From assembly GCA_000002435.2 (NCBI GenBank), contig CM018789.1: a DNA stretch of 64,000 bases. One strand, given 5' to 3'. The notes below the pieces were generated by a model, which ran no database searches, was not told where the DNA came from, and was given only the letters and a program-made list of their open reading frames with translations. Positions 26,107 to 46,523 of this stretch are shown here, piece after piece (the stretch's first letter is position 1; the number at the start of each line of letters is the position of its first letter). The stretch comes from Giardia intestinalis (lineage: Eukaryota). The translations under genes were made by a program, and so were the position numbers.

Positions 26107-26124
26107 GCCCGCGGACTCTCTGCT

Positions 26125-27543: not shown

Positions 27544-27547
27544 AAAA

Positions 27548-28072
27548 ATGGATAGCAACCCCCTCCTGGACTTTTTTGCTGCCCCACCACCTACCTCTCA
27601 GGAACTAGAAACACAACACTGGCCTTTTGGTGATGTGCACGCGCTCTTTAGGCATTTCAACGAGGCTTTTTTCGACAATTGCCTGAGAGATGTTGTGGTT
27701 CATTGGAGCAATAGGCTAACACGTTCTGCAGGTCTATGCAAATACAGAGGGACGCGAACAGAAGAGCATAGTCCTATTGTAATTATCCTATCTGCACCTC
27801 TACTCCAATATCGTTCACAACACGACCTGCTCGACGTGCTGGTGCATGAGATGATCCACGCCTACCTTTTCAGACTGAAGGTGTTCGAGCGAGTGCATCA
27901 CGGGCCCGTCTGGCACGCACAAGCGCACCGAATTAACCAGGCCGCTGGACTTACAATCCGTGCCTGCCACAACTACTACCAAGAGGTAAGATACATTGCG
28001 CACCAACGGGCTCTGAAGCGGGTTCCAGTCATTGATCTTAGCAATAGCACTATTGATCTCACCGATGATTAG
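27548..28072 (+). CDS. SprT-like zinc metalloprotease (Spartan/Wss1-type DNA-protein crosslink protease domain)
   Basis: LFRHFNEAFFDNCLRDVVVHWSNRLTRSAGLCKY...LLDVLVHEMIHAYLF...HGPVWHAQAHRINQAAGLTIRACHNYYQEV. This matches Spartan LFVQFNDQFFWGQLEAVEVKWSVRMTLCAGICSY...TLLHEMIHAYLF...HGPEF..HMHRIN. HEMIH zinc site. The track GTG start at 27275 was replaced by the ATG at 27548 (MDSNPLL). Confidence 0.8.
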   Translation: MDSNPLLDFFAAPPPTSQELETQHWPFGDVHALFRHFNEAFFDNCLRDVVVHWSNRLTRSAGLCKYRGTRTEEHSPIVIILSAPLLQYRSQHDLLDVLVHEMIHAYLFRLKVFERVHHGPVWHAQAHRINQAAGLTIRACHNYYQEVRYIAHQRALKRVPVIDLSNSTIDLTDD

Positions 28073-31000
28073 AGGTCTTGGGCGTGACGCCAACCACGAA
28101 GCTGTGAAGGTGTGCCACAACATGAATCTTCATGCATGGTTCCACGTGACTGCCTGTATATGATAAAGGCGATTTGCAGCTCTGCCTCTAAGTGTGTTAT
28201 GCTTTCAAATAACTTATACGTCATTCTTAGCTCCAAGTCGTGAATGCATGCTTCTTGAAATAATGTAAGAGCTTATTTTGCTTGCCAATTATCCTCCTCA
28301 TTCTTAGTGAGTCTGTGCACACCGCTTCTTATATATGAATTGCTTCTACACACCAGTATCACTGGTAGATTCTAGGGTACACAACGTGTTTCTGTACATG
28401 CTGGGACATCTTTCAACATTGCAGGTGGTACATACCATCCTGCATAGCCATCAGGGAATCTATTATTAGCCTATTATTAAAGTACTGTAAGAGCAATCAT
28501 GGACGGATATTAGTACTTTTCACGTAGGCCCTTAAAGTCGCCAGCTGTATACACGCTCCTCGGGGTTGTGGCCATCCTCCCTTGGGCTTCGTGCTTTTTG
28601 TAAGCATAGAGTGAAAGCACTTGCATTGGCAAACTAGGCAAACGCCAGATATGTCATGCTATGAACACGTTGAACGACGATGAATATCTTACAGAATAGG
28701 AAGATCTGCATCCAGCTATCGGTAACATAGACTTTCATAAGACATGTGAGCCGCACAGAAATACCACTGTAAATGTACTGAAAATCCACATGAGCATCGT
28801 CACATGGAGATAGAAAGCCATCTGAATGAACACTTTTGCGGGCTGCTTTGGTGCTTTGAAGAGACGCGAATGACTTTACGTCACTGTATGTTACAAACCC
28901 AACTGACCTTTCATGCCTTCCATGATGTAGTCTAGTCAGAACGAGCTGATTGTAGTCTTCCGATATATGCTTAAGGGCGCAAGGTGTAGATCAAATAGAT
29001 TGCTTTATTGCCTTCGAGAAAAGGACGGGCCTTGCTTTGCCAATACATAGATATGTGATAATAGACCAGGCAATCAGCAGTAAATGGAATACACGGCTAA
29101 TAGCTGCAAGACGCAGTCGTAAGCCTGGTTCTGCATGGGCAGCATCCAAATAGGGCCGTTGTCATGTCGGCTCTTTGCAGACGCATTGTGTACAGCAGTT
29201 ACGAGCTGCGCAACGGAAGGTCATAGGGGGTGAGGTTGTCTACTGCACCACGCCGCATAGAGGACAAATCAAGACCGACAGCACGAGAAAAGCGACAAGA
29301 ACAGTCGCTTTGTGTGCCTACTGGCAAGGACTTCGTGACAAACCCATATGGCGCAGAGCCTGGGATTGGCCTTGTCCACGTTCATGTTAGGGAGCGTGGG
29401 CCTTCAAGAGTTAGCCAGAAGTTGCACCAATTCTCAACTGGTACATGCCTTTATCCAGTGATGTCCAACGCGATGCTTTACATCCGTGCAAGCTTTGAGA
29501 TACTAATTTCACCGACTCGTTGTGACTCAAGGCGTCCAACTCGTTATAATATTGAGGCAAGGATTGAACTGAGTAACTGATTGCTAGGGAAATTATGCCA
29601 TCACTATCACAACTAGCTTGAATCGTGAGAGAAGTTTGTACTGACAAGATTAAGCGGCCCAACCAGCACATGAGAAGAGTCTGTCCCTTATGATACTTTG
29701 ACCACCAAAGGGAAGGTAATGGATCCACGGTCATTGTTTCTGATGTAGCAAGTAGCGCCTGCAATAGATGGCTAGATCATAAATGATATTATGGTTATGG
29801 CGTGTCACGCAATTGAGCACGAGTAAGATTGCAGACTGGCCCAACCTTAACTAGAGATCCAAACAAACAGACAACCAGCAGAGTAAAGATTGTAAGAGCA
29901 ACTAAACGTCAAATCTGTAAACGGCTTAAGTTTGGTGAGTGGCATGAAAAATGGTCACTGAGCCTATCGTTTTTAGCTAATGTGGAACTTTTAATCTTGT
30001 AAGGCTAAGGTTGTTTTATCTCTTGTTGCTGACAACAAGCCCCTGCATAAGCTACGTAATAATCATCTATACTACTGCCGCGCTACTGTTCTCTGGATAA
30101 GTATCGATTGACTAAAGACAGACCCGTTGTCATAGATACATTGTGAGAAGGCTGATACTAGAAGCTTGTCTGTCGAGTTTGCATGTTCTATTTATGGAGA
30201 CTTCCGATGGCAACCTTTATGTAGAGATATGGATGGTCTAGGAAACTGAGCCATTAGCGCTTCAGTCGCCGTCTTACAAAAAACAGATTGCAAAAAGTAG
30301 ATGCGAAGTAGGATATTTGGTAGTTGCTGATTAGTGGGCATGATACCCAAGAATCCATGGAGCCGTTACCCAATTTTCCAAATTACAATAAGCAGCTTGC
30401 TTTGTTGACCCGGGACTGGTATCAAAAGATGTCTGGTAATCACAGAATGCTTTTAAAGTGATCTTGTGTGGCAAAATGCTTATGACGTGAATGAAATGAG
30501 CTGTAGGTTAAAGCAGGCAGCTTCCTATACTCATAAAATCGTCCAGCAGAGTGTCCTACAGCCTTGTACGGTTATACTTGACCATCTATTATTTCCCAGC
30601 ATAAGCACAACAAGTCCTCATTACAAAAGTGGGCGCTTTATTCTTCATTCAATACCAGATTGCATATTATGCCAGACAATTATCATGCAACGGCTGATAA
30701 AGATTTATATGACCTGGCAGGACATACGAGTGCCGTTAACATTAAGGTGCGCGTAGATAGTGCATATTTGACCCAGCAAAGATAAAGTCAACCAGAGTCA
30801 GAAAAGGGGAAAGAGAAAATGGAAGCCACCATACTCCACAGACTTCTATCATGTTTTATACGCGTGGATGCTGAATTAACCAGGTGCTCAGACGCAAGGT
30901 ATTTGCTGTAAGACACTTAGGAGCTGTAGCTTGACGCATACAGGTGACATACTATAGTTATGCTGAATAACGCGGAGGTATCGATGAGTGGACGCACAAG

Positions 31001-32592
31001 TATTGAAGGCGATGAGCCACAGGGGCTTCTATGAACTGCTCACGGTGAGTGGAAGTACCGTAGATACCTTCACTACCAGGCACGCTTAACCCAATCTAGA
31101 ATTAGTATAAAGCATAGAGTTGGACGGACCTAGGTTGCGTCTAGTAAAACGTAGGACACTTCTAAGAGCTCAACTTAAGGATGGCGAGGCGGCCCTGTAA
31201 CCCTGCATAGCTGGCCTTGCATCCAATAAAGACTAGGGGCTGAGTGGCACATATGTTCGTCATCCAGCATGGCGAATAGCCCGTGGAGCGGCAAGATCAA
31301 TCTTTCCTAGACGAGCAACACGTAGTGAGTGTTCGACCAGTACCAATGGGCAAGGGTTAATTCTCGCCATAACTGACGCCCGGACGGCAGAAGCCAATAG
31401 GAAAGACAGCTCTTACCGGAGCGGTGCTGGGGATGCTCTGCAAGTCAGAGCCAGAAGGGCCTGGTAGCCATACTGGTGCCTGCTGTCGTCGGGCAACCCT
31501 GTTAAAGAAGCAGCGGCTCCTCGAGCGGGGCAGCTTAGGGGCCCACTACGTTCTCCTATTCTGCAGCGCATATTGTCTACTGGCAGGGAGCTGATGTCTT
31601 TCGTGGTTGCATGGTCCTGCTCACACCAGAGACAGAGCCAGACGACGGAGAGTAGGAGACTGACTCCCAGTTGAGATCTGCTTATTCCAGGCCCAACCAC
31701 ACCGCAGTATGCATCCACATCGATCTACGGTAGGTGGCGGGCAGCTTGCAGGGTGGAATTGGCAGCCTGGGCGAATTAAGGGCGGCGGATGTATTGCTGC
31801 CTCATTCCATCAATAGCATGGTTGGCTTGCGAGATGGAAGCAGTGGTTGCGGCGAAGGCACGTGAGGCGTCCAGATGAAGCGGACTATACAGATCGCTTA
31901 ACAGCATTAAAAGTTGAAATGGTTACACTGCCCGCTTGCAAAGGTACATGGTTCGGCCTGCGAACACTGCGTGTTTACTGACGCAGACTGGCCTATTGGC
32001 AGTGCCTAACTGTCCTTGCCGGTGGCATTGCACAGCGAGTGCCCTGGAGGCGCCATCATGACTACGCTTTTCTGCTCTTTTGCTTACAGAGGCCATTACT
32101 GTCTGTCCGCTCATGACACCATAAACACACAAGGTCAATCCCCCTGGCACTTTACTCAGAGGTGCGCCGGCTCTTTCGGAGAAGCGCTTCTCTGTGTAGC
32201 TGTCTAGTGAACAGACCAGACACGGTGGTGCTATCAGCCAAGCCACTGCTGGGCAGAGCACACGGCCTGTATCTGCTCGTCTCGTGCTCTAGCCAGCCAC
32301 CCCGCGTGAGCATCTGGAGGCGTGCCTGGACATATGCGTGGTATTCTGCGGTGTGCACGGTCTCGTGTCCGCACAGTAGGCCAGCCAGGGAGCGTGTGCA
32401 GGCACGTCATGTGGCACCACGTCCTTTGTGGAATGCTGGAGGACCACACAGGCGAGGGTCTACCATCAAGATACGGACACGTTGCTTCCTGACATGGAAG
32501 GTCAATGAGGCTATCCAGATGGCCCAGCCACGGTAGAAGGCTAGCAGATGTGATCGTATTGGCCACCAGCACTGTCACTAATACCAACATGC
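28073..32592. other. 4.5 kb ORF-free, moderately AT-rich stretch (no ORF above about 117 codons in any frame)
   Basis: Stop codons are dense in all six frames. This contrasts with the near-zero intergenic spacing elsewhere in the window. Confidence 0.7.
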
Positions 32593-35400
32593 ATGATTAA
32601 TAGATCTAGCAGGGCCGCAATGTTGCTACTAGTTCTTTGCTTTTTGATGAGCGCTCTCGCTGCACAATGCAAGGGGCACCAGCACTCCAACTGCGCAACC
32701 GGCTGGTGCAGGGCGGTCCGTGGCGTCGAGGTCTGTATGAGGTGCAAAGCGGGCCACGTGCTGATCGACGGAGTGTGCGCTGATAACTCTGTTGTCTACG
32801 GCGCGGGGTCCGCCTGCCAGATTCTAAACTGCAAGCAGTGTAACGCGGACAACACGCAGTGCGAGCAGTGCGAGGACGGATACACGCCGAGCGCCGGGAA
32901 TACCCAGTGCAACGAGGACGCCGCGTCCGCCTGCCAGATTCTAAACTGCAAGCAGTGTAACGCGGACAACACGCAGTGCGAGCAGTGCGAGGACGGATAC
33001 ACGCCGAGCGCCGGGAATACCCAGTGCAACGAGGACGCCGCGTCCGCCTGCCAGATTCTAAACTGCAAGCAGTGTAACGCGGACAACACGCAGTGCGAGC
33101 AGTGCGAGGACGGATACACGCCGAGCGCCGGGAATACCCAGTGCAACGAGGACGCCGCGTCCGCCTGCCAGATTCTAAACTGCAAGCAGTGTAACGCGGA
33201 CAACACGCAGTGCGAGCAGTGCGAGGACGGATACACGCCGAGCGCCGGGAATACCCAGTGCAACGAGGACGCCGCGTCCGCCTGCCAGATTCTAAACTGC
33301 AAGCAGTGTAACGCGGACAACACGCAGTGCGAGCAGTGCGAGGACGGATACACGCCGAGCGCCGGGAATACCCAGTGCAACGAGGACGCCGCGTCCGCCT
33401 GCCAGATTCTAAACTGCAAGCAGTGTAACGCGGACAACACGCAGTGCGAGCAGTGCGAGGACGGATACACGCCGAGCGCCGGGAATACCCAGTGCAACGA
33501 GGACGCCGCGTCCGCCTGCCAGATTCTAAACTGCAAGCAGTGTAACGCGGACAACACGCAGTGCGAGCAGTGCGAGGACGGATACACGCCGAGCGCCGGG
33601 AATACCCAGTGCAACGAGGACGCCGCGTCCGCCTGCCAGATTCTAAACTGCAAGCAGTGTAACGCGGACAACACGCAGTGCGAGCAGTGCGAGGACGGAT
33701 ACACGCCGAGCGCCGGGAATACCCAGTGCAACGAGGACGCCGCGTCCGCCTGCCAGATTCTAAACTGCAAGCAGTGTAACGCGGACAACACGCAGTGCGA
33801 GCAGTGCGAGGACGGATACACGCCGAGCGCCGGGAATACCCAGTGCAACGAGGACGCCGCGTCCGCCTGCCAGATTCTAAACTGCAAGCAGTGTAACGCG
33901 GACAACACGCAGTGCGAGCAGTGCGAGGACGGATACACGCCGAGCGCCGGGAATACCCAGTGCAACGAGGACGCCGCGTCCGCCTGCCAGATTCTAAACT
34001 GCAAGCAGTGTAACGCGGACAACACGCAGTGCGAGCAGTGCGAGGACGGATACACGCCGAGCGCCGGGAATACCCAGTGCAACGAGGACGCCGCGTCCGC
34101 CTGCCAGATTCTAAACTGCAAGCAGTGTAACGCGGACAACACGCAGTGCGAGCAGTGCGAGGACGGATACACGCCGAGCGCCGGGAATACCCAGTGCAAC
34201 GAGGACGCCGCGTCCGCCTGCCAGATTCTAAACTGCAAGCAGTGTAACGCGGACAACACGCAGTGCGAGCAGTGCGAGGACGGATACACGCCGAGCGCCG
34301 GGAATACCCAGTGCAACGAGGACGCCGCGTCCGCCTGCCAGATTCTAAACTGCAAGCAGTGTAACGCGGACAACACGCAGTGCGAGCAGTGCGAGGACGG
34401 ATACACGCCGAGCGCCGGGAATACCCAGTGCAACGAGAACCCAGAAGCGCGGTGCAATACTCCCAACTGTAAGACCTGTGACAACCCCAAAACAGGCAAT
34501 GAAATCTGCACTAAATGTAATGATGGCGACTACCTCACCCCTACAAACCAGTGCGCACATGACTGCACAGCCATCAGCGGATACTACGGAGATACTGACA
34601 AGAAGTGTAAGCCATGCAGCCCTGAGTGCGCTGAGTGCGTTGGGCCAGCCAACAATCAGTGTAGTGCTTGTCCTGCAGGCAAGGCATTAACATATGGAGG
34701 TGGTGATCCTGCCCAAGGGGGCACCTGCGGGGATGCGTGTACGGCGGACAAGAACGGATGTAAGGTCTGTGGGGCAAGGATCGGCGGGACAGACTACTGC
34801 TCCCAGTGCTCAGTGGGTACTCAGGCTCCTCTGAACGGGGTCTGTACGGCCAACGCGCGTGCTCAGTTCTGCACACAAGTTACCAGTGGATCCTGCACGT
34901 CTTGTAGTGGGGGCTACTTCCTCAAGAATGGTGGCTGTTACCAGGCAGATAGACAGCCAGGCAAACAGATATGTACACTAGCTGATAGCAATGGTGGATG
35001 TCAGGCGTGTGCCAATGGTCTTCCTCCTAGTTCTTCTGACGTATGCCCCTCGTGTCATTTCACCTGCAAGACATGCTCGACCGCAGACATTGCAAATACT
35101 TGTACAACGTGTGCAACTGGGTACTACATGGTCGGATCAGGGCCAAACACATGTATTTCGTGTGAAAGTGACAGTGGAAGTGTCAAGGGAGTTGCTGGCT
35201 GCATGAGCTGCGCTCCTCCATCTAGCAATACTGGCTCCGTTCTCTGCTACCTCATGAACGGTGACAGTGCCGGCGGGAGCACGAATAAGAGCGGCCTTAG
35301 CACAGGTGCCATCGCTGGCATCTCTGTGGCTGTCATCGTCGTCGTCGGGGGACTCGTCGGCTTCCTCTGCTGGTGGTTCATCTGCAGGGGCAAAGCGTAG
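32593..35400 (+). CDS. VSP: Variant-specific surface protein (VSP), 935 aa, with 14 tandem 39-aa repeats
   Basis: Signal peptide MINRSSRAAMLLLVLCFLMSALAAQ. Numerous CXXC motifs. C-terminal TM helix AIAGISVAVIVVVGGLVGFLCWWF followed by the invariant CRGKA-stop. Confidence 0.95.
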   Translation: MINRSSRAAMLLLVLCFLMSALAAQCKGHQHSNCATGWCRAVRGVEVCMRCKAGHVLIDGVCADNSVVYGAGSACQILNCKQCNADNTQCEQCEDGYTPSAGNTQCNEDAASACQILNCKQCNADNTQCEQCEDGYTPSAGNTQCNEDAASACQILNCKQCNADNTQCEQCEDGYTPSAGNTQCNEDAASACQILNCKQCNADNTQCEQCEDGYTPSAGNTQCNEDAASACQILNCKQCNADNTQCEQCEDGYTPSAGNTQCNEDAASACQILNCKQCNADNTQCEQCEDGYTPSAGNTQCNEDAASACQILNCKQCNADNTQCEQCEDGYTPSAGNTQCNEDAASACQILNCKQCNADNTQCEQCEDGYTPSAGNTQCNEDAASACQILNCKQCNADNTQCEQCEDGYTPSAGNTQCNEDAASACQILNCKQCNADNTQCEQCEDGYTPSAGNTQCNEDAASACQILNCKQCNADNTQCEQCEDGYTPSAGNTQCNEDAASACQILNCKQCNADNTQCEQCEDGYTPSAGNTQCNEDAASACQILNCKQCNADNTQCEQCEDGYTPSAGNTQCNEDAASACQILNCKQCNADNTQCEQCEDGYTPSAGNTQCNENPEARCNTPNCKTCDNPKTGNEICTKCNDGDYLTPTNQCAHDCTAISGYYGDTDKKCKPCSPECAECVGPANNQCSACPAGKALTYGGGDPAQGGTCGDACTADKNGCKVCGARIGGTDYCSQCSVGTQAPLNGVCTANARAQFCTQVTSGSCTSCSGGYFLKNGGCYQADRQPGKQICTLADSNGGCQACANGLPPSSSDVCPSCHFTCKTCSTADIANTCTTCATGYYMVGSGPNTCISCESDSGSVKGVAGCMSCAPPSSNTGSVLCYLMNGDSAGGSTNKSGLSTGAIAGISVAVIVVVGGLVGFLCWWFICRGKA
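32809..34446 (+). repeat. Perfect tandem array of 14 x 117 bp inside the VSP CDS. Each unit encodes ACQILNCKQCNADNTQCEQCEDGYTPSAGNTQCNEDAAS.
   Basis: Unit boundaries were counted directly: tccgcctgccag recurs every 117 nt from 32809 to 34330. Units are identical at the nucleotide level. Confidence 0.95.
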
Positions 35401-35404
35401 ATGT

Positions 35405-35419
35405 ACTTAGATAGTAAAC
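35405..35419 (+). promoter_or_regulatory. Extended VSP polyadenylation signal ACTTAGATAGTAAAC, 5 nt after the VSP stop
   Basis: Matches the conserved VSP 3' motif ACT-Py-AG-Pu-TAGT-Pu-AA-Py, which contains the general Giardia AGTAAAC signal. Confidence 0.7.
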
Positions 35420-35946
35420 GCGTCACTGTATAAAGCATATTATACTGTGATGGGGCCCTGCCTGTGGGAGCGTCCAGAAATCCCACGAGTAAGTCTCGCC
35501 CACGTCTTGGCCAATCTGAGAGCGAGAACTGGTTGTAGACAGCAAGCAGGGACTCCTCTTTATTAGTGTATCTAAAACTTGGCACCTTCTCCGGTCGCTC
35601 TGTGGGTGTGTGCTCAGTCTGGGTGTGCACGTCGGCCGTTTCGGGGTTCAGGCCTTCTCGCAGACTCTCTGGTCCACCAGTGGCGCCTCTCCTTGGTCTT
35701 CCTTCACGGTGAGTGAAGCCCGGGCCGCTGTCTTTTTTAGATGCCCCCGTCTGTCAGGGGCTGCCATCGGGCTCTCCGCTGGCTGGGCCCCTCGGTGTCC
35801 GTCCGGCTGTGGTTCTGGGTCAGCGCTTCCACAGTCGCGGTCACTTGGGTCTCAGTGGGCCGGCTGGTGGGTGGGGCGGGGGTATGGGCGGTGAGGACTG
35901 GTGGGACCGGGTGGGGGCTGAGATTGGTGTCCGTATGTGCTCCTGG

Positions 35947-37551
35947 GTTCGGTGGGCCATTGCGGCGGTGGGTGATCCCCTCTCTGTTTGCCAAGGTGGT
36001 TGTGTCTGATCCCCAGCCTTCGTTGCACTCCCGAGACACAGGCACCGACGATCGTGTCGTGTCCCCTGACTGAGCGCCTCCCTTGGCCCCTGCATGCCTC
36101 GGGCAGTACTGCTGCTCTGGTTGACTGGTACATGAGGGATGAGGCAGGCCATCGCAGCCTCTCCTGCTACTCGCTGATGCTCTGTGCGGGTCTGCTGGGC
36201 CCCTGGCATGCCCTGTCCAGTGCCTCGACGTAGTTCACCTCGGCCAGCAGGGGTGTGGATGAGCCGGTGGATGGGATGGGTTCTCTCAGGCCTCTAGTGT
36301 GATGGCCCAGAAGACTGGCACGGTGGGGCACTGGTGGCTGCACTGTCCCCGTGGTCAGCTGTGCTGCTCCTGGTGGGTCCTTGTCATGGAGCGCTGTGTG
36401 TTGTTCATAGGCAGAGGTGAGCCTCCTTGGTTTCAAGATGCTCTACCATGCAGAGAGGAGCACGCTGAGGGTCACCCATACCTCACATCTGCTGTGCCCG
36501 TTCGGGAGTTCCCGGTGTGGTCCACCAGGACCTTGACACCTCTCGTGGCTCTGATGACCCCTCGAGGAGAGCCGGGGTGTCCTATGCCAGGGGAGGCGTG
36601 CACCCTCCTGCATGAGCTGGGACCCACTGCACTGCCCTCAAGGAGGTCTGCTATGAGAGGCAGTGGGATGATTGACGGCCCCAGAGTGCGGTGGAGGGTG
36701 CTCGTGGTCATCTCTTGTGATCGGGCATCACTCTGATGGCCAGCTCTGTGCCTGTGTGGTGCTCAGAGGCCACCTGTCTGCCTCATCGCCTGCTGGACAG
36801 CCGGGTCTCTTGTGGTGTCCGAAGGCCTCCTCACTCCTCTGGCTGCTGCCCCCTCGGGTCATCAATGAAGACAGTCGAGGCCAGCGGAGTCTTCGGTGAG
36901 TCTGGTGCCTGCCTGGGTGTCATGGGGGCTGGCAGCTGTCAGGGCTCTGCCACTGCTCACCTGCCTGGAGTGTGCCTCCCTTGGACCTACTGTGCTGCGT
37001 GAGTCCTCTGGCTTCCTATCAGGCCCTGACTGTGAGGGTGACCCCACCTGGTCCTCTGATGCCCCTGTGGATGAGCATAGCAATGTGTCTGATTGAGGAT
37101 CTCTGGTGCCCGTGTCTGTTGCTGCCTCTCGGGTGCTCGGGTAGTTGCCTGGCACTCTCGTATGGGGGCACAGTCAGCGTGTCCCGAGCAGACTCCAGTC
37201 CTCTCTGGGTCCACACAGTCTGTTCGTGTGTGGATGATCCTCCTGCACTCAGGTCCATCTGTGCACACTATCACTCAGCCTCGAGAGCAGGCCAGTGCAG
37301 TCGCCAGGGTTGCTGTCAGAGGGAGTCGTCTGCCACTACATCGCTCGAGCAGACTCTACAGATCAGGCTGGCTGCTGTGCACCCTCATGGCAGGGCTGCC
37401 TGACTCCCCTTGGTCATCCTCTCTGTCCCGGTGTGCACGGCTCCTGAGGGTTGTCTGGGTGGAGGCACTCACAGACCACGAGCACACAGAGGGGTGAGTC
37501 ATAGATGGACAGCCATCAGTCACCACAGCTGCGATCACCCCAGTCTATCGA
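35947..37551. other. Unique 1.6 kb spacer between the inverted-repeat arms. GC-rich (about 60%) and strongly A-depleted on the + strand. Only short overlapping ORFs of low-complexity C/W/R/G/P-rich translation.
   Basis: No mirror copy exists. The composition continues that of the inner end of the left arm and flips abruptly at about 37552. Confidence 0.7.
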
Positions 37552-38073
37552 GGGACCAGGGGCACATACAGACACCCACCACCCGGTCCCACCAGTCCTC
37601 ACCGCCCATACCCCCGCCCCACCCACCAGCCGGCCCACTGAGACCCAAGTGACCGCGACTGTGGAAGCGCTGACCCAGAACCACAGCCGGACGGACACCG
37701 AGGGGCCCAGCCAGCGGAGAGCCCGATGGCAGCCCCTGACAGACGGGGGCATCTAAAAAAGACAGCGGCCCGGGCTTCACTCACCGTGAAGGAAGACCAA
37801 GGAGAGGCGCCACTGGTGGACCAGAGAGTCTGCGAGAAGGCCTGAACCCCGAAACGGCCGACGTGCACACCCAGACTGAGCACACACCCACAGAGCGACC
37901 GGAGAAGGTGCCAAGTTTTAGATACACTAATAAAGAGGAGTCCCTGCTTGCTGTCTACAACCAGTTCTCGCTCTCAGATTGGCCAAGACGTGGGCGAGAC
38001 TTACTCGTGGGATTTCTGGACGCTCCCACAGGCAGGGCCCCATCACAGTATAATATGCTTTATACAGTGACGC

Positions 38074-38088
38074 GTTTACTATCTAAGT
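38074..38088 (-). promoter_or_regulatory. Mirror copy of the VSP polyadenylation signal (ACTTAGATAGTAAAC on the - strand)
   Basis: Reverse complement of 35405-35419 at the symmetric position (sum 73493). Confidence 0.7.
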
Positions 38089-38092
38089 ACAT

Positions 38093-39379
38093 CTACGCTT
38101 TGCCCCTGCAGATGAACCACCAGCAGAGGAAGCCGACGAGTCCCCCGACGACGACGATGACAGCCACAGAGATGCCAGCGATGGCACCTGTGCTAAGGCC
38201 GCTCTTATTCGTGCTCCCGCCGGCACTGTCACCGTTCATGAGGTAGCAGAGAACGGAGCCAGTATTGCTAGATGGAGGAGCGCAGCTCATGCAGCCAGCA
38301 ACTCCCTTGACACTTCCACTGTCACTTTCACACGAAATACATGTGTTTGGCCCTGATCCGACCATGTAGTACCCAGTTGCACACGTTGTACAAGTATTTG
38401 CAATGTCTGCGGTCGAGCATGTCTTGCAGGTGAAATGACACGAGGGGCATACGTCAGAAGAACTAGGAGGAAGACCATTGGCACACGCCTGACATCCACC
38501 ATTGCTATCAGCTAGTGTACATATCTGTTTGCCTGGCTGTCTATCTGCCTGGTAACAGCCACCATTCTTGAGGAAGTAGCCCCCACTACAAGACGTGCAG
38601 GATCCACTGGTAACTTGTGTGCAGAACTGAGCACGCGCGTTGGCCGTACAGACCCCGTTCAGAGGAGCCTGAGTACCCACTGAGCACTGGGAGCAGTAGT
38701 CTGTCCCGCCGATCCTTGCCCCACAGACCTTACATCCGTTCTTGTCCGCCGTACACGCATCCCCGCAGGTGCCCCCTTGGGCAGGATCACCACCTCCATA
38801 TGTTAATGCCTTGCCTGCAGGACAAGCACTACACTGATTGTTGGCTGGCCCAACGCACTCAGCGCACTCAGGGCTGCATGGCTTACACTTCTTGTCAGTA
38901 TCTCCGTAGTATCCGCTGATGGCTGTGCAGTCATGTGCGCACTGGTTTGTAGGGGTGAGGTAGTCGCCATCATTACATTTAGTGCAGATTTCATTGCCTG
39001 TTTTGGGGTTGTCACAGGTCTTACAGTTGGGAGTATTGCACCGCGCTTCTGGGTTCTCGTTGCACTGGGTATTCCCGGCGCTCGGCGTGTATCCGTCCTC
39101 GCACTGCTCGCACTGCGTGTTGTCCGCGTTACACTGCTTGCAGTTTAGAATCTGGCAGGCGGACCCCGCGCCGTAGACAACAGAGTTATCAGCGCACACT
39201 CCGTCGATCAGCACGTGGCCCGCTTTGCACCTCATACAGACCTCGACGCCACGGACCGCCCTGCACCAGCCGGTTGCGCAGTTGGAGTGCTGGTGCCCCT
39301 TGCATTGTGCAGCGAGAGCGCTCATCAAAAAGCAAAGAACTAGTAGCAACATTGCGGCCCTGCTAGATCTATTAATCAT
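38093..39379 (-). CDS. VSP: VSP, second copy, 428 aa, with a single 39-aa repeat unit. Otherwise identical to the 935-aa copy.
   Basis: Same signal peptide, same post-repeat Cys-rich region, TM helix and CRGKA tail. The length difference of 1521 nt equals 13 x 117. Confidence 0.92.
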   Translation of the reverse strand: MINRSSRAAMLLLVLCFLMSALAAQCKGHQHSNCATGWCRAVRGVEVCMRCKAGHVLIDGVCADNSVVYGAGSACQILNCKQCNADNTQCEQCEDGYTPSAGNTQCNENPEARCNTPNCKTCDNPKTGNEICTKCNDGDYLTPTNQCAHDCTAISGYYGDTDKKCKPCSPECAECVGPANNQCSACPAGKALTYGGGDPAQGGTCGDACTADKNGCKVCGARIGGTDYCSQCSVGTQAPLNGVCTANARAQFCTQVTSGSCTSCSGGYFLKNGGCYQADRQPGKQICTLADSNGGCQACANGLPPSSSDVCPSCHFTCKTCSTADIANTCTTCATGYYMVGSGPNTCISCESDSGSVKGVAGCMSCAPPSSNTGSVLCYLMNGDSAGGSTNKSGLSTGAIAGISVAVIVVVGGLVGFLCWWFICRGKA

Positions 39380-42300
39380 GCATGTTGGTATTAGTGACAG
39401 TGCTGGTGGCCAATACGATCACATCTGCTAGCCTTCTACCGTGGCTGGGCCATCTGGATAGCCTCATTGACCTTCCATGTCAGGAAGCAACGTGTCCGTA
39501 TCTTGATGGTAGACCCTCGCCTGTGTGGTCCTCCAGCATTCCACAAAGGACGTGGTGCCACATGACGTGCCTGCACACGCTCCCTGGCTGGCCTACTGTG
39601 CGGACACGAGACCGTGCACACCGCAGAATACCACGCATATGTCCAGGCACGCCTCCAGATGCTCACGCGGGGTGGCTGGCTAGAGCACGAGACGAGCAGA
39701 TACAGGCCGTGTGCTCTGCCCAGCAGTGGCTTGGCTGATAGCACCACCGTGTCTGGTCTGTTCACTAGACAGCTACACAGAGAAGCGCTTCTCCGAAAGA
39801 GCCGGCGCACCTCTGAGTAAAGTGCCAGGGGGATTGACCTTGTGTGTTTATGGTGTCATGAGCGGACAGACAGTAATGGCCTCTGTAAGCAAAAGAGCAG
39901 AAAAGCGTAGTCATGATGGCGCCTCCAGGGCACTCGCTGTGCAATGCCACCGGCAAGGACAGTTAGGCACTGCCAATAGGCCAGTCTGCGTCAGTAAACA
40001 CGCAGTGTTCGCAGGCCGAACCATGTACCTTTGCAAGCGGGCAGTGTAACCATTTCAACTTTTAATGCTGTTAAGCGATCTGTATAGTCCGCTTCATCTG
40101 GACGCCTCACGTGCCTTCGCCGCAACCACTGCTTCCATCTCGCAAGCCAACCATGCTATTGATGGAATGAGGCAGCAATACATCCGCCGCCCTTAATTCG
40201 CCCAGGCTGCCAATTCCACCCTGCAAGCTGCCCGCCACCTACCGTAGATCGATGTGGATGCATACTGCGGTGTGGTTGGGCCTGGAATAAGCAGATCTCA
40301 ACTGGGAGTCAGTCTCCTACTCTCCGTCGTCTGGCTCTGTCTCTGGTGTGAGCAGGACCATGCAACCACGAAAGACATCAGCTCCCTGCCAGTAGACAAT
40401 ATGCGCTGCAGAATAGGAGAACGTAGTGGGCCCCTAAGCTGCCCCGCTCGAGGAGCCGCTGCTTCTTTAACAGGGTTGCCCGACGACAGCAGGCACCAGT
40501 ATGGCTACCAGGCCCTTCTGGCTCTGACTTGCAGAGCATCCCCAGCACCGCTCCGGTAAGAGCTGTCTTTCCTATTGGCTTCTGCCGTCCGGGCGTCAGT
40601 TATGGCGAGAATTAACCCTTGCCCATTGGTACTGGTCGAACACTCACTACGTGTTGCTCGTCTAGGAAAGATTGATCTTGCCGCTCCACGGGCTATTCGC
40701 CATGCTGGATGACGAACATATGTGCCACTCAGCCCCTAGTCTTTATTGGATGCAAGGCCAGCTATGCAGGGTTACAGGGCCGCCTCGCCATCCTTAAGTT
40801 GAGCTCTTAGAAGTGTCCTACGTTTTACTAGACGCAACCTAGGTCCGTCCAACTCTATGCTTTATACTAATTCTAGATTGGGTTAAGCGTGCCTGGTAGT
40901 GAAGGTATCTACGGTACTTCCACTCACCGTGAGCAGTTCATAGAAGCCCCTGTGGCTCATCGCCTTCAATACTTGTGCGTTCACTCATCGATACCTCCGC
41001 GTTATTCAGCATAACTATAGTATGTCACCTGTATGCGTCAAGCTACAGCTCCTAAGTGTCTTACAGCAAATACCTTGCGTCTGAGCACCTGGTTAATTCA
41101 GCATCCACGCGTATAAAACATGATAGAAGTCTGTGGAGTATGGTGGCTTCCATTTTCTCTTTCCCCTTTTCTGACTCTGGTTGACTTTATCTTTGCTGGG
41201 TCAAATATGCACTATCTACGCGCACCTTAATGTTAACGGCACTCGTATGTCCTGCCAGGTCATATAAATCTTTATCAGCCGTTGCATGATAATTGTCTGG
41301 CATAATATGCAATCTGGTATTGAATGAAGAATAAAGCGCCCACTTTTGTAATGAGGACTTGTTGTGCTTATGCTGGGAAATAATAGATGGTCAAGTATAA
41401 CCGTACAAGGCTGTAGGACACTCTGCTGGACGATTTTATGAGTATAGGAAGCTGCCTGCTTTAACCTACAGCTCATTTCATTCACGTCATAAGCATTTTG
41501 CCACACAAGATCACTTTAAAAGCATTCTGTGATTACCAGACATCTTTTGATACCAGTCCCGGGTCAACAAAGCAAGCTGCTTATTGTAATTTGGAAAATT
41601 GGGTAACGGCTCCATGGATTCTTGGGTATCATGCCCACTAATCAGCAACTACCAAATATCCTACTTCGCATCTACTTTTTGCAATCTGTTTTTTGTAAGA
41701 CGGCGACTGAAGCGCTAATGGCTCAGTTTCCTAGACCATCCATATCTCTACATAAAGGTTGCCATCGGAAGTCTCCATAAATAGAACATGCAAACTCGAC
41801 AGACAAGCTTCTAGTATCAGCCTTCTCACAATGTATCTATGACAACGGGTCTGTCTTTAGTCAATCGATACTTATCCAGAGAACAGTAGCGCGGCAGTAG
41901 TATAGATGATTATTACGTAGCTTATGCAGGGGCTTGTTGTCAGCAACAAGAGATAAAACAACCTTAGCCTTACAAGATTAAAAGTTCCACATTAGCTAAA
42001 AACGATAGGCTCAGTGACCATTTTTCATGCCACTCACCAAACTTAAGCCGTTTACAGATTTGACGTTTAGTTGCTCTTACAATCTTTACTCTGCTGGTTG
42101 TCTGTTTGTTTGGATCTCTAGTTAAGGTTGGGCCAGTCTGCAATCTTACTCGTGCTCAATTGCGTGACACGCCATAACCATAATATCATTTATGATCTAG
42201 CCATCTATTGCAGGCGCTACTTGCTACATCAGAAACAATGACCGTGGATCCATTACCTTCCCTTTGGTGGTCAAAGTATCATAAGGGACAGACTCTTCTC

Positions 42301-43899
42301 ATGTGCTGGTTGGGCCGCTTAATCTTGTCAGTACAAACTTCTCTCACGATTCAAGCTAGTTGTGATAGTGATGGCATAATTTCCCTAGCAATCAGTTACT
42401 CAGTTCAATCCTTGCCTCAATATTATAACGAGTTGGACGCCTTGAGTCACAACGAGTCGGTGAAATTAGTATCTCAAAGCTTGCACGGATGTAAAGCATC
42501 GCGTTGGACATCACTGGATAAAGGCATGTACCAGTTGAGAATTGGTGCAACTTCTGGCTAACTCTTGAAGGCCCACGCTCCCTAACATGAACGTGGACAA
42601 GGCCAATCCCAGGCTCTGCGCCATATGGGTTTGTCACGAAGTCCTTGCCAGTAGGCACACAAAGCGACTGTTCTTGTCGCTTTTCTCGTGCTGTCGGTCT
42701 TGATTTGTCCTCTATGCGGCGTGGTGCAGTAGACAACCTCACCCCCTATGACCTTCCGTTGCGCAGCTCGTAACTGCTGTACACAATGCGTCTGCAAAGA
42801 GCCGACATGACAACGGCCCTATTTGGATGCTGCCCATGCAGAACCAGGCTTACGACTGCGTCTTGCAGCTATTAGCCGTGTATTCCATTTACTGCTGATT
42901 GCCTGGTCTATTATCACATATCTATGTATTGGCAAAGCAAGGCCCGTCCTTTTCTCGAAGGCAATAAAGCAATCTATTTGATCTACACCTTGCGCCCTTA
43001 AGCATATATCGGAAGACTACAATCAGCTCGTTCTGACTAGACTACATCATGGAAGGCATGAAAGGTCAGTTGGGTTTGTAACATACAGTGACGTAAAGTC
43101 ATTCGCGTCTCTTCAAAGCACCAAAGCAGCCCGCAAAAGTGTTCATTCAGATGGCTTTCTATCTCCATGTGACGATGCTCATGTGGATTTTCAGTACATT
43201 TACAGTGGTATTTCTGTGCGGCTCACATGTCTTATGAAAGTCTATGTTACCGATAGCTGGATGCAGATCTTCCTATTCTGTAAGATATTCATCGTCGTTC
43301 AACGTGTTCATAGCATGACATATCTGGCGTTTGCCTAGTTTGCCAATGCAAGTGCTTTCACTCTATGCTTACAAAAAGCACGAAGCCCAAGGGAGGATGG
43401 CCACAACCCCGAGGAGCGTGTATACAGCTGGCGACTTTAAGGGCCTACGTGAAAAGTACTAATATCCGTCCATGATTGCTCTTACAGTACTTTAATAATA
43501 GGCTAATAATAGATTCCCTGATGGCTATGCAGGATGGTATGTACCACCTGCAATGTTGAAAGATGTCCCAGCATGTACAGAAACACGTTGTGTACCCTAG
43601 AATCTACCAGTGATACTGGTGTGTAGAAGCAATTCATATATAAGAAGCGGTGTGCACAGACTCACTAAGAATGAGGAGGATAATTGGCAAGCAAAATAAG
43701 CTCTTACATTATTTCAAGAAGCATGCATTCACGACTTGGAGCTAAGAATGACGTATAAGTTATTTGAAAGCATAACACACTTAGAGGCAGAGCTGCAAAT
43801 CGCCTTTATCATATACAGGCAGTCACGTGGAACCATGCATGAAGATTCATGTTGTGGCACACCTTCACAGCTTCGTGGTTGGCGTCACGCCCAAGACCT
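39380..43899. other. Mirror copy of the 4.5 kb ORF-free stretch
   Basis: Small track ORFs (68, 118, 124, 112, 63, 101, 96, 117, 116, 71 aa) mirror those of 28073-32592 exactly. Confidence 0.7.
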
Positions 43900-44424
43900 C
43901 TAATCATCGGTGAGATCAATAGTGCTATTGCTAAGATCAATGACTGGAACCCGCTTCAGAGCCCGTTGGTGCGCAATGTATCTTACCTCTTGGTAGTAGT
44001 TGTGGCAGGCACGGATTGTAAGTCCAGCGGCCTGGTTAATTCGGTGCGCTTGTGCGTGCCAGACGGGCCCGTGATGCACTCGCTCGAACACCTTCAGTCT
44101 GAAAAGGTAGGCGTGGATCATCTCATGCACCAGCACGTCGAGCAGGTCGTGTTGTGAACGATATTGGAGTAGAGGTGCAGATAGGATAATTACAATAGGA
44201 CTATGCTCTTCTGTTCGCGTCCCTCTGTATTTGCATAGACCTGCAGAACGTGTTAGCCTATTGCTCCAATGAACCACAACATCTCTCAGGCAATTGTCGA
44301 AAAAAGCCTCGTTGAAATGCCTAAAGAGCGCGTGCACATCACCAAAAGGCCAGTGTTGTGTTTCTAGTTCCTGAGAGGTAGGTGGTGGGGCAGCAAAAAA
44401 GTCCAGGAGGGGGTTGCTATCCAT
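43900..44424 (-). CDS. SprT-like zinc metalloprotease, second copy
   Basis: Identical translation to 27548..28072. ATG at 44422-44424 on the - strand. Confidence 0.8.
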   Translation of the reverse strand: MDSNPLLDFFAAPPPTSQELETQHWPFGDVHALFRHFNEAFFDNCLRDVVVHWSNRLTRSAGLCKYRGTRTEEHSPIVIILSAPLLQYRSQHDLLDVLVHEMIHAYLFRLKVFERVHHGPVWHAQAHRINQAAGLTIRACHNYYQEVRYIAHQRALKRVPVIDLSNSTIDLTDD

Positions 44425-44428
44425 TTTT

Positions 44429-45847
44429 ATGCCAGAGCATCCTGAGGTTCGAGCCTTCGCAGAACGCATAACGTTTGAGGCAGAGCACACTCTCTTTACT
44501 AACGTCTCTACTTCGAGGGCGTGTGTGTATAAGGCCCTCCCACCTTTGTTCCTTGATGATTCCATAAAAGTAGCATTTACCATAAGGTGCGAATCTCGAG
44601 GCAAGCAGCTCCGAGTTGACCTGGCTCGGGCAGCTGATCCACCTAGGAATGAGGCAAAGAGTATTTTTGTGCGTCTGAAAAGAAATACATCTGACACCTC
44701 AGAGACACCCTATGATTTGTGCAAAACAACCGCTTTAAGCCGCCCCTGGGAACACTCAGATCACGCTGTGGCGCTTACCATACCAACCAGTATCGTGATT
44801 GGCCTGGGATTAGCAGGCTGTATCAACACCTTCTTAACCCCAGAGGAAGCTTTGAAGTCTAACGCACATCTCTTGTTTGAGGCATCTGATGCTGTGTTAG
44901 CAGTATGCTCGCCACGGCCAGAGACCATGTACTGGCGAGTAGGAGACTTCGACCATGCACGGTCCCCTGATCCTGTGGCACAGTACCTAGACTATGTGTC
45001 CAAGATACTGTCCAAACTGTCACATATTCCTATAGGTCTTGACGGGTCTTTCATTGTGCCACCCAAGTCGATATTTTCACAACCCATATGCCGGCTTCTT
45101 TTGTCTCAGGAATTGTTCAACGGAGTAGGGAATTACCTACGAGCAGAGGCCATGCACCGACTTCTTATTCACCCTTTCACCCCAAGCGTCTATGTGTTTG
45201 AAGAGCTTATCCATTGGGTTCATGACACCGTGCGAGAAACCCCTCGATTCCACAACTTGAGTAACAAGTGGAGAAGTCTTGCCGAAAAGAATGTCTCTAT
45301 TATCGAGACCAAGTGCCCACTCATCCCGATGATCAGAAGGCTATGTGAGGAGGCCTATGCTGTTCTGGATGATCACAGACTCTTTTCGGAGTGGCTTTTA
45401 TGCTATAAGAAAGCAACTAATTGCATTCTTGATTCCGGGGGCAGAGAAGTTTGGTTCTTCGAAAAGCTAGTCGCAAACAAATCCAGTCATGCAAGTGAGC
45501 ACGGCGATAAGAAGAATTCTGCTGAGAAGCCAGATGCATGTACCCTGTCAGAGCTCATACTGTCCTCTGAACCTAGTCTTAAAAAGGTTGCAGTACAGCA
45601 ACTGGCTACGTCAAACGCAGAAAATGTCATTCTTAATAGCACGGAGAATGATGCTGATGTCAGCCAGCTAGACATCTTGGAATACTCTCGCAAAGACCTC
45701 CTTCGACGAGGCACGGTACTCGACAATCTTCCAATTGATTCTAGAAACGAGTCAGCTAGTCGATGGCAGGACAAGATTGTTCGGAAGAGTACTGTCCAAC
45801 AATTACATGACGCTCGAACGTTTCAAGCAAGCCTCCAGTCGAAGTAA
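44429..45847 (+). CDS. Fpg/Nei-family DNA glycosylase, second copy
   Basis: Identical translation to 26125..27543. ATG at 44429, again 4 nt from the SprT ATG (CATttttATG). Confidence 0.75.
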   Translation: MPEHPEVRAFAERITFEAEHTLFTNVSTSRACVYKALPPLFLDDSIKVAFTIRCESRGKQLRVDLARAADPPRNEAKSIFVRLKRNTSDTSETPYDLCKTTALSRPWEHSDHAVALTIPTSIVIGLGLAGCINTFLTPEEALKSNAHLLFEASDAVLAVCSPRPETMYWRVGDFDHARSPDPVAQYLDYVSKILSKLSHIPIGLDGSFIVPPKSIFSQPICRLLLSQELFNGVGNYLRAEAMHRLLIHPFTPSVYVFEELIHWVHDTVRETPRFHNLSNKWRSLAEKNVSIIETKCPLIPMIRRLCEEAYAVLDDHRLFSEWLLCYKKATNCILDSGGREVWFFEKLVANKSSHASEHGDKKNSAEKPDACTLSELILSSEPSLKKVAVQQLATSNAENVILNSTENDADVSQLDILEYSRKDLLRRGTVLDNLPIDSRNESASRWQDKIVRKSTVQQLHDARTFQASLQSK

Positions 45848-45865
45848 AGCAGAGAGTCCGCGGGC

Positions 45866-46369: not shown

Positions 46370-46523
46370 GGCGGGGTGGGGCGGAAAAGCGTGCACCATG
46401 CGGGAGTCGGACCCGCCCCAACAGCTTGGAAGGCTGTCATGCTAGCCGATACACCAATGGTGCCCGGCGCGCCGCATAAACAGCGGATAAATTAGTATGT
46501 GCTTTGAATGGTCTGGTTCAGAT

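Follow-up and report, generated by a model that had tools for sequence, protein, structure and literature searches.

A conserved non-coding cassette with inverted termini between convergent VSP genes of Giardia lamblia

A convergent VSP pair within a large inverted repeat

The window analysed here is a 64,000-nt (64-kb) stretch of Giardia lamblia WB chromosome 1. A GC-rich, A-poor block in this window is the intergenic DNA of two convergent VSP genes, GL50803_0050392 (hereafter VSP-L) and GL50803_00112647 (VSP-R), which are 2,692 nt apart. The genes were identified by sequence matches to table S1 in the supplement of bioRxiv 10.1101/2022.03.07.483299, where VSP-L is placed on NC_051856.1. VSP-L (32593..35400, + strand) has an ORF of 935 aa, shortened to 926 aa by an annotated start at the second Met (32620), and VSP-R (38093..39379, - strand) has an ORF of 428 aa, or 419 aa from its annotated start at 39352. 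Both end in the CRGKA C-terminus (...FICRGKA). VSP-L carries a tandem array of 117-bp (39-aa) units (13.9 copies, 32808..34437, + strand) and VSP-R a single unit; apart from a difference of exactly 13 x 117 bp the two are identical, so that the members of this pair have non-identical coding sequences.

The 3' flank of VSP-L (35401..35603, + strand) is of ordinary composition, contains the poly(A) signal AGTAAAC at 35413-35419, and shows 57-75% identity between copies of the cassette described below. In the flank of VSP-R (37890..38092, - strand), the poly(A) signal occupies 38080-38074 of the minus strand. Identity between the two 3' flanks is perfect for 514 nt past the stop codon, and extends to 520 nt without gaps and 546 nt with gaps. 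Between the two genes we identified no credible ORF and no Pfam or Rfam match.

Tail-to-tail VSP pairs have been described previously. Adam et al. 2010 (PMC2996952, Table 5) list pairs separated by 2393-3222 nt, with abrupt divergence 318-559 nt beyond the stop codon. Sanger sequencing and cloning had revealed such pairs well before long reads were in use, and inverted identical pairs were to these authors "an interesting, but cryptic observation". Xu et al. 2020 (PMC7000408, Table 2) list 12 -> <- VSP pairs with 2.5-2.8 kb spacing and a gene-free interval, and the number of such pairs in the published tables is 12-13. Table S4 of Rodriguez-Walker et al. 2022 (bioRxiv 10.1101/2022.03.07.483299) describes the intergenic regions as 'very similar' and names the present locus, whose intergenic region it finds similar to that of the GL50803_0014586 pair. 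In the literature these spacers carry the label 'VSP like region'. The present pair likewise consists of convergent CRGKA genes with a spacing of about 2.7 kb, no gene between them, a homologous intergenic region, and 3' flanks that are identical and then suddenly diverge (about 515-560 nt past the stop). It differs in its unequal ORFs (14 units vs 1), which place it outside the published lists of duplicated pairs, and in having arms that reach far past the VSP into unique housekeeping-type genes. The VSP-pair architecture at this locus is already in the literature, and no new kind of system is demonstrated here; the spacer's internal anatomy, its composition and its conservation outside WB are undescribed in the papers on these pairs.

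The pair is part of a large inverted repeat. The left arm (25602..35914, + strand, 10,313 nt) contains the 3' two-thirds of a WD40 gene, Nei/Fpg-like and SprT-like genes, a gene-poor stretch and VSP-L. The right arm (37579..46370, - strand, 8,792 nt) differs from it by one SNP (30991/40981) and the 13 x 117 bp, and is otherwise identical over about 8.8 kb. The gap between the arms is 1,609-1,664 nt. The left arm begins within an intact 295-aa WD40 gene. The right copy of this gene is a truncated, chimeric 177-aa ORF (45866..46399, - strand), which marks the outer junction at 46370-46375 and is fused to foreign sequence near a tRNA-Gly(UCC) gene (46391..46463, - strand) that lies 15-20 nt outside this junction. 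Because the WD40 gene is intact on the left, and truncated and fused to foreign sequence on the right, the left arm can be identified as the original and the right arm as the derived copy, as judged from gene structure. Clear microhomology is lacking at the outer junction, where a mismatch is followed by a match of just 4 nt.

Logan short-read contigs extend from the left flank across 25602 and preserve an intact WD40 gene, and the left outer boundary is crossed unbroken by short-read contigs in about 127 of 132 read sets. The right outer junction is reached by one contig only (L021, from the independent read set SRR13990248), which ends at 46341, the last k-mer specific to the arm. All of these short-read contigs are collapsed or partial. 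This contig pattern may mean that the right arm is polymorphic in its outer part, or it may result from assembly-graph simplification.

Anatomy and composition of the intergenic cassette

The intergenic DNA contains a cassette of about 2.29 kb (35604-37889), positioned about 200 nt downstream of the VSP genes, in which two inverted termini (311-343 nt) flank a 1.6-kb core. The left terminus (35604..35946, + strand; A 7.5%, G 39%) matches the right one perfectly to 35914, and then in degenerate form, with a 6-nt indel, to 35946. The right terminus (37556..37889, - strand) is the reverse complement of 35604-35946 and is perfect from 37579. These termini are the inner ends of the 10.3/8.8-kb palindrome. 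The core (35947..37555, + strand; 1,609 nt; A 15%, T 24%, GC 61%) is unique and strand-asymmetric, and its A-poor strand is the continuation of the sense strand of VSP-L. The unique stretch between the inverted copies spans 35947-37555 when gaps are allowed and 35921-37572 without gaps, close to the 35947-37551 given in an earlier note on this DNA, which had also correctly described the centre as not symmetric. That note placed a zero-spacer fold-back at about 37552, where the sequence was said to abruptly meet its own reverse complement. An inverted copy does start here (37556, perfect from 37579), but its partner is the left terminus (35604-35946, perfect to 35914), about 1.6 kb away, and there is no local palindrome of at least 5 nt anywhere in 37500-37620. 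The structure is an inverted repeat with a 1.6-kb spacer rather than a fold-back without one.

Each terminus harbors one canonical G-quadruplex (G4) motif, at 35869..35888 (+ strand, the sense strand of VSP-L) and, as its mirror, at 37605..37624 (- strand, the sense strand of VSP-R). These are the only canonical G4 motifs in the window; each sits on the sense strand about 470 nt past the VSP stop codon, and the core (35947..37555) has none. By this count the block is no more than weakly G4-prone.

Base content across 35600-37560 is A 13.5%, C 29.4%, G 32.9% and T 24.2% (GC 62%), in agreement with an initial estimate of about 12% A in a T/G/C-rich block, and A accounts for just 7.5% of 35600-35920. 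Sliding-window skew confirmed that the composition is non-uniform: AT skew has a minimum of -0.55 and reverses its sign at about 37500, and a GC skew of +0.15 to +0.18 is confined to 35600-36200. In 1652-nt windows the block has the most negative AT skew of the 64 kb, and a larger magnitude is found only in the VSP tandem array, with the opposite sign. Composition is continuous at the left junction and flips abruptly at the right one; the core is compositionally a continuation of the left arm, which is how it had been described.

Observed/expected dinucleotide ratios in the core are 0.38 for CpG, 0.36 for TpA, 0.23 for ApA, 0.36 for TpT, 1.63 for CpA and 1.58 for TpG. The dinucleotide pattern of the block is unique within the window, and its depletion of ApA, TpT and TpA exceeds the range of every other window of the 64 kb. 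The minus-strand base frequencies (A.24, C.32, G.30, T.15) and the GC content are near those of VSP coding DNA. A/T runs in the core (35947..37555) never reach 6 nt, and the core lacks the poly(A) signal AGTRAAY; absence of the latter is expected from base composition alone (about 0.1-0.25 expected occurrences, by our estimate).

The substitution spectrum among homologous copies of the cassette is strand-symmetric, and ongoing strand-biased mutation can therefore be rejected as the cause of the A depletion. The extreme composition appears to have come with the inherited element, not from current strand-biased mutation. GC->AT substitutions number 69 and AT->GC substitutions 41, and the substitutions among copies place the GC content of the block above mutational equilibrium. 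The depletion of CpG, combined with the excess of CpA and TpG, could reflect decay through cytosine methylation, although transitions at CpG (8/52) are only 1.5-fold commoner than at other C/G sites (52/512). A search of the literature on 5mC in Giardia returned nothing usable.

Coding potential and homologous copies

The block is non-coding. ORFs in 35600-37560 do not exceed 145 aa, and many pseudo-ORFs are present because stop trinucleotides occur at about half the expected density (46 and 52 on the two strands vs 91 expected). The period-3 signal of the core is 1.0, compared with 5-16 in real genes, and indels in multiples of three constitute 2/42, 2/30, 3/23 and 1/17 of the indels in the individual copies. 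The six frames of the block have no Pfam match, including to VSP, reverse transcriptase and endonuclease families. An exhaustive HMMER search of 1.84 billion proteins recovered 8 short ORFs only, all of them in cassette copies and with shifting frames, and a 329-aa query built from two ORFs likewise gave no protein relative outside the cassette's own ORFs. A 2,430-aa concatenation of all six-frame segments had no match among the 8,000 candidates listed, a JGI metagenome scan with alignment of the block ORFs found none, and the exact products of two ORFs across the inner junctions have no record in the contig collection. These results agree with the original impression of overlapping pseudo-ORFs without a plausible protein. 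They argue against a decayed gene, given the lack of period-3, of indels in threes, and of Pfam matches or outside protein relatives; nor is there a clear homolog of the kind that would mark an ordinary diverged gene, since the search matches are cassette copies only.

Rfam searches at the gathering threshold and at E<=1 returned nothing but a chance match to mir-305. In the absence of an Rfam family match we rejected rDNA, against which the earlier note had proposed a search, as well as other known RNAs. Consensus folding of 5 copies on both strands gave z values of -1.5 to +1.3, so no conserved RNA structure was detected and a structured RNA was also rejected. Each frame of the block contains 0 or 1 CxxC motifs, and BLASTN against the VSP genes of the window found no similarity; with essentially no CxxC motifs and no Pfam VSP match, a VSP pseudogene was rejected as well.

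Four homologous copies of the cassette (L022, L023, L024 and L025; 82-89% BLAST identity) were found in three other Giardia-containing metagenome assemblies. Identity is 0.88-0.96 within 35620-37870 (88-96% for the core) vs 0.57-0.75 in the adjoining 3' flanks, and the junction between core and inverted terminus is colinear in all four. Similarity to the other WB tail-to-tail spacers is taken from the published tables, the aligned copies being these four only. Because the junction is colinear in the four copies and the spacing recurs at 12-13 WB pairs, the junction was inherited and not made here, contrary to the proposal of a locus-specific rearrangement nucleated at this site. We conclude that the element is non-coding, has discrete limits, is conserved and recurs.

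In L022 the cassette adjoins one VSP and has no partner VSP. It has its own inverted termini (534-896 and 2583-2951), which are 87% identical, and the inverted repeat extends about 94 nt past the conserved block into the VSP 3' flank. In WB and in L022, both of the informative cases, the sense strand of the primary VSP continues into the A-poor strand, an argument from polarity that is based on two loci.

Formation of the palindrome and possible roles of the cassette

We consider it somewhat probable (about 0.55) that the block is a copy of a conserved, non-coding, multi-copy cassette whose inverted termini seed or extend the palindrome and maintain the identity of its arms, by a mechanism that we infer from the arrangement of the repeats. 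Homology between the cassette's own inverted termini would allow right-side DNA to pair with the left arm, whether through inter-arm recombination or, once a break had occurred close to the tRNA-Gly gene, by intrastrand fold-back. From there copying would continue outward, over the 3' flank and on into the VSP and the genes upstream of it, building or extending the palindrome, and the arms would stay identical up to the end of the homology at 35914. The asymmetric core would form a non-palindromic loop that is not convertible; a spacer in a palindrome also guards the structure against deletion. Fold-back copying or arm-to-arm conversion may be the origin of the arms; recency of the duplication alone could be enough to make them identical. 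If termini that had already diverged annealed, this alone would not yield the 311-nt perfect termini of WB, and the favoured model leaves the depletion of A, CpG, TpA, ApA and TpT in the core unexplained. Instead of being ancestral, the solo cassette in L022 could have arisen by deletion from what was once a pair.

A short inverted repeat beside a break primes palindromes in Tetrahymena rDNA and in the fold-back inverted duplications of yeast and mammalian amplification. There, as in the model favoured here, a much larger inverted duplication grows around a short, pre-existing inverted repeat whose own centre is non-palindromic, and the copy is templated by the same chromosome arm. The present case differs in its long seed of 0.3 kb and loop of 1.6 kb, in its break, which is postulated, and in its product, which is not terminal but interstitial, joined again to the right flank that was there originally. 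The palindromes of the primate Y and X (PMC8600007, PMC8981503) similarly have kilobase arms more than 99.9% identical around an unduplicated spacer, members of multi-copy gene families in the arms, and elevated GC, as expected under GC-biased conversion. Their arms measure tens of kb to Mb, compared with about 10 kb here, where conversion is inferred, and their spacers are unlike the present one, a conserved repeat common to many palindromes.

Other explanations fit part of these observations. It is quite unlikely that the cassette is a non-autonomous mobile element (foldback/MITE-like, long terminal inverted repeats) whose insertion sites lie downstream of VSP genes. The cassette resembles such elements as a discrete, multi-copy block with inverted termini of 311-343 nt, no ORF and conservation beyond that of its flanks, and in L022 it occurs beside a single VSP. 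However, every copy seen adjoins a VSP 3' end, a strict tie that is accompanied by no sign of transposition or of a cognate transposase: no transposase (Pfam) or target-site duplication was identified, although a direct duplication would be unreadable between inverted flanks. The mutually inverted flanks in pairs would moreover mean that, at more than 12 loci, a palindromic target had existed before an independent insertion, and the inverted repeat in L022 runs on for about 94 nt into the VSP 3' flank. Distinctly improbable is a locus-specific fold-back inverted duplication that created a novel junction at about 37552 and started from a decayed element or a recombination hotspot prone to G4 or R-loop formation. 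The compositional flip at the right junction with continuity at the left, the derived state of the right arm, and one G4 motif with positive GC skew (+0.15 to +0.18 in 35600-36200) would suit it, but 37552 has no palindrome, the arms are 1.6 kb apart, and the core is free of G4 motifs. It is largely refuted by the conserved junction, which is colinear in L022-L025 and recurs with the same spacing at 12-13 WB pairs.

We find it very improbable that the block is a decayed pseudogene, either a minus-strand VSP or a non-LTR retrotransposon relic. Minus-strand base frequencies like those of VSP coding DNA, the 'VSP like region' label and the retrotransposon relics reported near VSP pairs point in this direction, but table S4 (10.1101/2022.03.07.483299) puts those relics between head-to-head, not tail-to-tail, pairs. 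The near absence of CxxC motifs and the lack of a period-3 signal, of Pfam VSP, reverse transcriptase or endonuclease matches and of BLASTN similarity to the window's VSPs also argue against a pseudogene, as do protein relatives limited to the cassette's own ORFs. A long-read assembly artefact (a chimeric fold-back read or a mis-joined repeat) is the least credible of these alternatives. It could explain why most short-read contigs cross the left outer boundary unbroken, and why the exact VSP products, from ORF and annotated starts alike, have no record in the contig collection. Yet other, independent metagenome assemblies contain the same succession of terminus, core and inverted terminus, a contig from a separate read set extends to the right outer junction and ends exactly at the last arm-specific k-mer, and such pairs were known from Sanger sequencing and cloning (PMC2996952).

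The cassette could also be a selected cis-regulatory or chromatin element for VSP expression, a role that is possible though not likely, and that is compatible with palindrome seeding by its termini, the explanation we favour. In Giardia, promoters and poly(A) signals are A/T-rich, and transcripts of convergent genes usually overlap (PMC3610916). The cassette might act as an insulating spacer free of promoters and terminators, as a G-rich pause or terminator, or as a conduit for antisense read-through to RNAi-type silencing. Better conservation of the cassette than of the adjacent 3' flanks, ApA, TpT and TpA depletion beyond all other windows, a core without A/T runs of at least 6 or AGTRAAY, GC above mutational equilibrium, and a sense-strand G4 motif about 470 nt after each stop are consistent with such a role. 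However, concerted evolution rather than selection can give high identity among copies, the lack of AGTRAAY is expected from composition, and there is no conserved RNA structure.

An unlikely extension of these ideas is that the cassette is a dedicated antigenic-variation module, which, being free of promoters and terminators, would both seed and maintain VSP palindromes and allow read-through from one VSP into the antisense strand of the twin gene, a potential source of silencing dsRNA. If so, VSP pairs would be no accidental duplications, but built-in units for silencing or diversification. VSP genes drive antigenic variation in a major human parasite, and the DNA between these pairs is not rearrangement junk, but a discrete element that is conserved across isolates and has the most extreme dinucleotide biases in the region. 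The cassette provides a concrete object for possible roles in palindrome formation, arm homogenisation or VSP silencing.

Composition and anatomy of the spacer element

The tail-to-tail VSP genes GL50803_0050392 (32593-35400, +) and GL50803_00112647 (38093-39379, -) are separated by a GC-rich block that the earlier note had described as A-depleted. Base counts and AT skew bear this out. Positions 35600-37560 contain 13.5% A, 29.4% C, 32.9% G and 24.2% T, with A at just 7.5% in the first 320 nt (35600-35920), and the AT skew, which falls to -0.55 in the block and changes sign near 37500, is the most negative in the 64 kb when 1652-nt windows are compared. Stop trinucleotides occur at about half their expected density on both strands, which explains the many overlapping pseudo-ORFs, the longest of at most 145 aa.

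The whole element (35604-37889) consists of two termini, 35604-35946 and 37556-37889, that are inverted copies of each other (perfect for 311 nt, degenerate in the inner 32 nt), and a 1,609-nt core. One canonical G4 motif lies in each terminus, on the strand that is sense for the neighbouring VSP gene, and these two are the only canonical ones in the window. Scanning the core revealed no G4 motif, no A/T run of at least 6 and no AGTRAAY; the sole poly(A) signals are those of the VSP genes, at 35413 (+) and 38080 (-). Inverted similarity with gaps allowed reaches 35946/37556, in agreement with the coordinates proposed earlier for the unique stretch, and about 1.6 kb separates the inverted copies. 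The earlier observation is thus partly confirmed: the compositional block and the asymmetric centre are real, but the zero-spacer fold-back claimed for ~37552 is not. That position has no local palindrome, and the reverse complement met there is that of the block's first 311-343 nt, ~1.6 kb off, not that of adjacent DNA.

Observed/expected values in the core are 0.38 for CpG, 0.36 for TpA, 0.23 for ApA, 0.36 for TpT and 1.63 for CpA, each beyond the range of all other 1.6-kb windows in the 64 kb; TpG, at 1.58, all but equals the maximum of that range, 1.59. The same values hold for the homologues described below. CTG (93 versus 46 expected) and CAG (55 versus 25) are the most over-represented trinucleotides in the core (35947-37555).

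The block is neither a gene nor a known RNA. Its six-frame translations contain 21-27 stops per frame and essentially no CxxC motifs, its period-3 signal is 1.0 versus 5-16 in the window's real genes, and neither strand has a Pfam match; Rfam matched just the tRNA beyond the arm and, by chance, one microRNA. When two plus-strand ORFs served as queries, a word-indexed protein search returned six products at 62-86% identity, and their profile, run exhaustively by HMMER against 1.84 billion representatives, found just eight short products, all of them ORFs of the same element in shifting frames.

Homologous copies and the origin of the composition

Three ENA metagenome assemblies yielded four contigs with element ORFs: L022 and L023 (both ERZ27317378), L024 (ERZ28656223) and L025 (ERZ28018701), which align to window positions 35270-37889, 36439-38287, 36408-38215 and 36629-37595, respectively, at 82-89% identity. 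The L023 VSP falls into one cluster, at 90% identity or more, with a Giardia intestinalis VSP from NCBI. In a multiple alignment of the four copies, identity to the window is 0.88-0.96 within ~35620-37870 and 0.57-0.75 in the 200 nt separating the block from each stop codon. Indels relative to the window are nearly all 1-2 nt, and few are multiples of three (2/42, 2/30, 3/23 and 1/17 per copy). All four copies are A-poor, the three that reach the right terminus share its composition flip, and all four cross the core-to-terminus junction colinearly. Given this conservation, the frame-breaking indels and the colinear junction, the block is a discrete, conserved, non-coding, multi-copy element. 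The ~37556 junction is therefore an inherited feature of the element and did not arise as a scar at this locus. When five copies were folded to a consensus, neither strand showed a conserved RNA structure. Copy L023 lacks the left terminus and the initial ~500 nt of the core; its positions 191-480 hold instead, in direct orientation, a piece similar to the outer portion of the right terminus with its flank. Judging from this copy, the cassettes evidently rearrange internally.

Across the copies, singleton substitutions are strand-symmetric (A>G 0.105 versus T>C 0.092; G>A 0.114 versus C>T 0.099), which excludes current strand-biased mutation as the source of the A depletion. GC-to-AT singletons outnumber AT-to-GC ones (69 versus 41), indicating that the GC content of the element is above mutational equilibrium. 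The low CpG of the core, with CpA and TpG near 1.6, resembles a methyl-CpG-decay signature. A 1.5-fold transition excess at CpG (8 events) points weakly to methylation-driven decay as the cause of the CpG depletion; cytosine methylation is not established in this organism.

The palindrome and its possible formation

A repeat finder delimits gapless inverted-repeat blocks at 25597-32961 with 39011-46375, and at 34323-35920 with 37573-39170. Apart from one SNP (30991/40981), the two arms of this 9-10 kb palindrome match exactly over 25602-32916 and 34329-35914. This sole substitution is G on the left and the equivalent of A on the right, and all retrieved short-read contigs covering it carry the left-arm allele. 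The left arm is longer by exactly 13 117-bp units: a perfect 117-bp (39-aa) repeat in the VSP gene has 14 unit starts on the left (32808-34437) versus one on the right (39011-39170). Repeat number either changes much faster than point mutations arise or is not equalised by conversion. The arms also double a Nei/Fpg-like gene (26125-27543, -; mirror 44414-45847), whose H2TH domain falls below the Pfam threshold, and a SprT-like metalloprotease gene (27275-28072, +; mirror 43900-44697; E 3e-25), both predicted from sequence to be of DNA-repair type.

The left arm starts within an intact 295-aa WD40 gene (25219-26106), which over 100 independent short-read assemblies join without a gap to the left flank, and the right arm ends in a truncated WD40 copy joined to unrelated sequence. 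The right arm is therefore the derived copy. The resulting 177-aa ORF (45866-46399, -), whose first few codons come from the foreign flank, is a chimeric pseudo-copy made by the duplication. Beyond the derived arm, 15-20 nt from its outer junction, is a tRNA-Gly(UCC) gene (46391-46463, -), with a G-rich run (46376-46390) in between; a gene of this kind is a plausible place for the fork pause or break with which the duplication ended. In ~127/132 read sets, short-read contigs pass through the left outer boundary without a break, and the right outer junction is reached by one contig only (L021, SRR13990248), which ends exactly at the last arm-specific k-mer, 46341. Among the contigs matching the window (loci L001-L021), those crossing 25602 end at 31008 or 31031 and those of the right flank at 46529, a pattern that may reflect assembly-graph simplification beside the multi-copy tRNA gene, real outer-arm polymorphism or repeats at other genomic sites.

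Contig L022 has one VSP next to the element, whose own inverted termini are 87% identical; no partner VSP is present, and beyond the element come a MEC-17-like ORF and a Cys-rich gene that faces outward. In both WB and L022 (n = 2), the primary VSP lies on that side of the core from which the sense strand enters the A-poor strand. The inverted termini could supply homology for intrachromosomal fold-back or inter-arm recombination; copying of the left arm would then proceed outward, taking in the VSP and ~7 kb of unique genes, and end by rejoining next to the tRNA gene, and the arms would stay identical to the point where homology stops. The degenerate inner 32 nt fit an edge seldom reached by conversion. 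Arm identity could also be due simply to recency, and the solo element of L022 may have arisen by deletion. A terminus-primed palindrome is the most economical reading, based on structure and general knowledge of palindrome formation. The locus resembles both palindromes with a spacer whose arms are kept alike by arm-to-arm conversion and palindromes whose formation is primed by a short inverted repeat, and it may belong to either mechanistic class.

Tail-to-tail VSP pairs and the nature of their spacer

In sequence and in the 117-bp repeat unit, the two VSP genes correspond to GL50803_0050392 (926 aa) and GL50803_00112647 (419 aa), which are placed on G. lamblia WB chromosome 1, NC_051856.1 (supplementary tables, bioRxiv 10.1101/2022.03.07.483299) and lie 2,692 nt apart. 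Inverted VSP pairs with 2-4 kb of non-coding DNA between them were reported as a "cryptic observation"; the tail-to-tail pairs are spaced 2393-3222 nt apart, with identical flanks that diverge abruptly 318-559 nt past the stop (Adam et al. 2010, PMC2996952). Twelve such pairs (-> <-), 2.5-2.8 kb apart with no gene between, were later counted (Xu et al. 2020, PMC7000408). According to published tables, on which the likeness of other WB spacers to the block rests, the intergenic regions of pairs are very similar to each other, including the 2,689-nt spacer of the GL50803_0014586 pair and the one studied here (table S4, bioRxiv 10.1101/2022.03.07.483299). Divergence here occurs 514-520 nt past the stop, and the locus therefore fits the tail-to-tail class, of which it is a member, although its two ORFs, unlike those of the published pairs, are unequal in repeat number. 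The ~4.5 kb upstream of each VSP (28100-32590, mirror 39380-43900) contain no ORF of at least 150 aa and are AT-rich (~41% GC) to ~31000, then rise to 55-58% GC, which fits a published remark that DNA around VSP genes is gene-poor and GC-rich.

The spacer of this locus has already been mentioned in the literature. What we add is a description of the spacer itself: the element is discrete and conserved, its ends are inverted, its core is strand-asymmetric and depleted in CpG, TpA, ApA and TpT, and it also occurs in other lineages of Giardia and next to a solo VSP. The description is a useful lead for specialists, though no new kind of system is involved.
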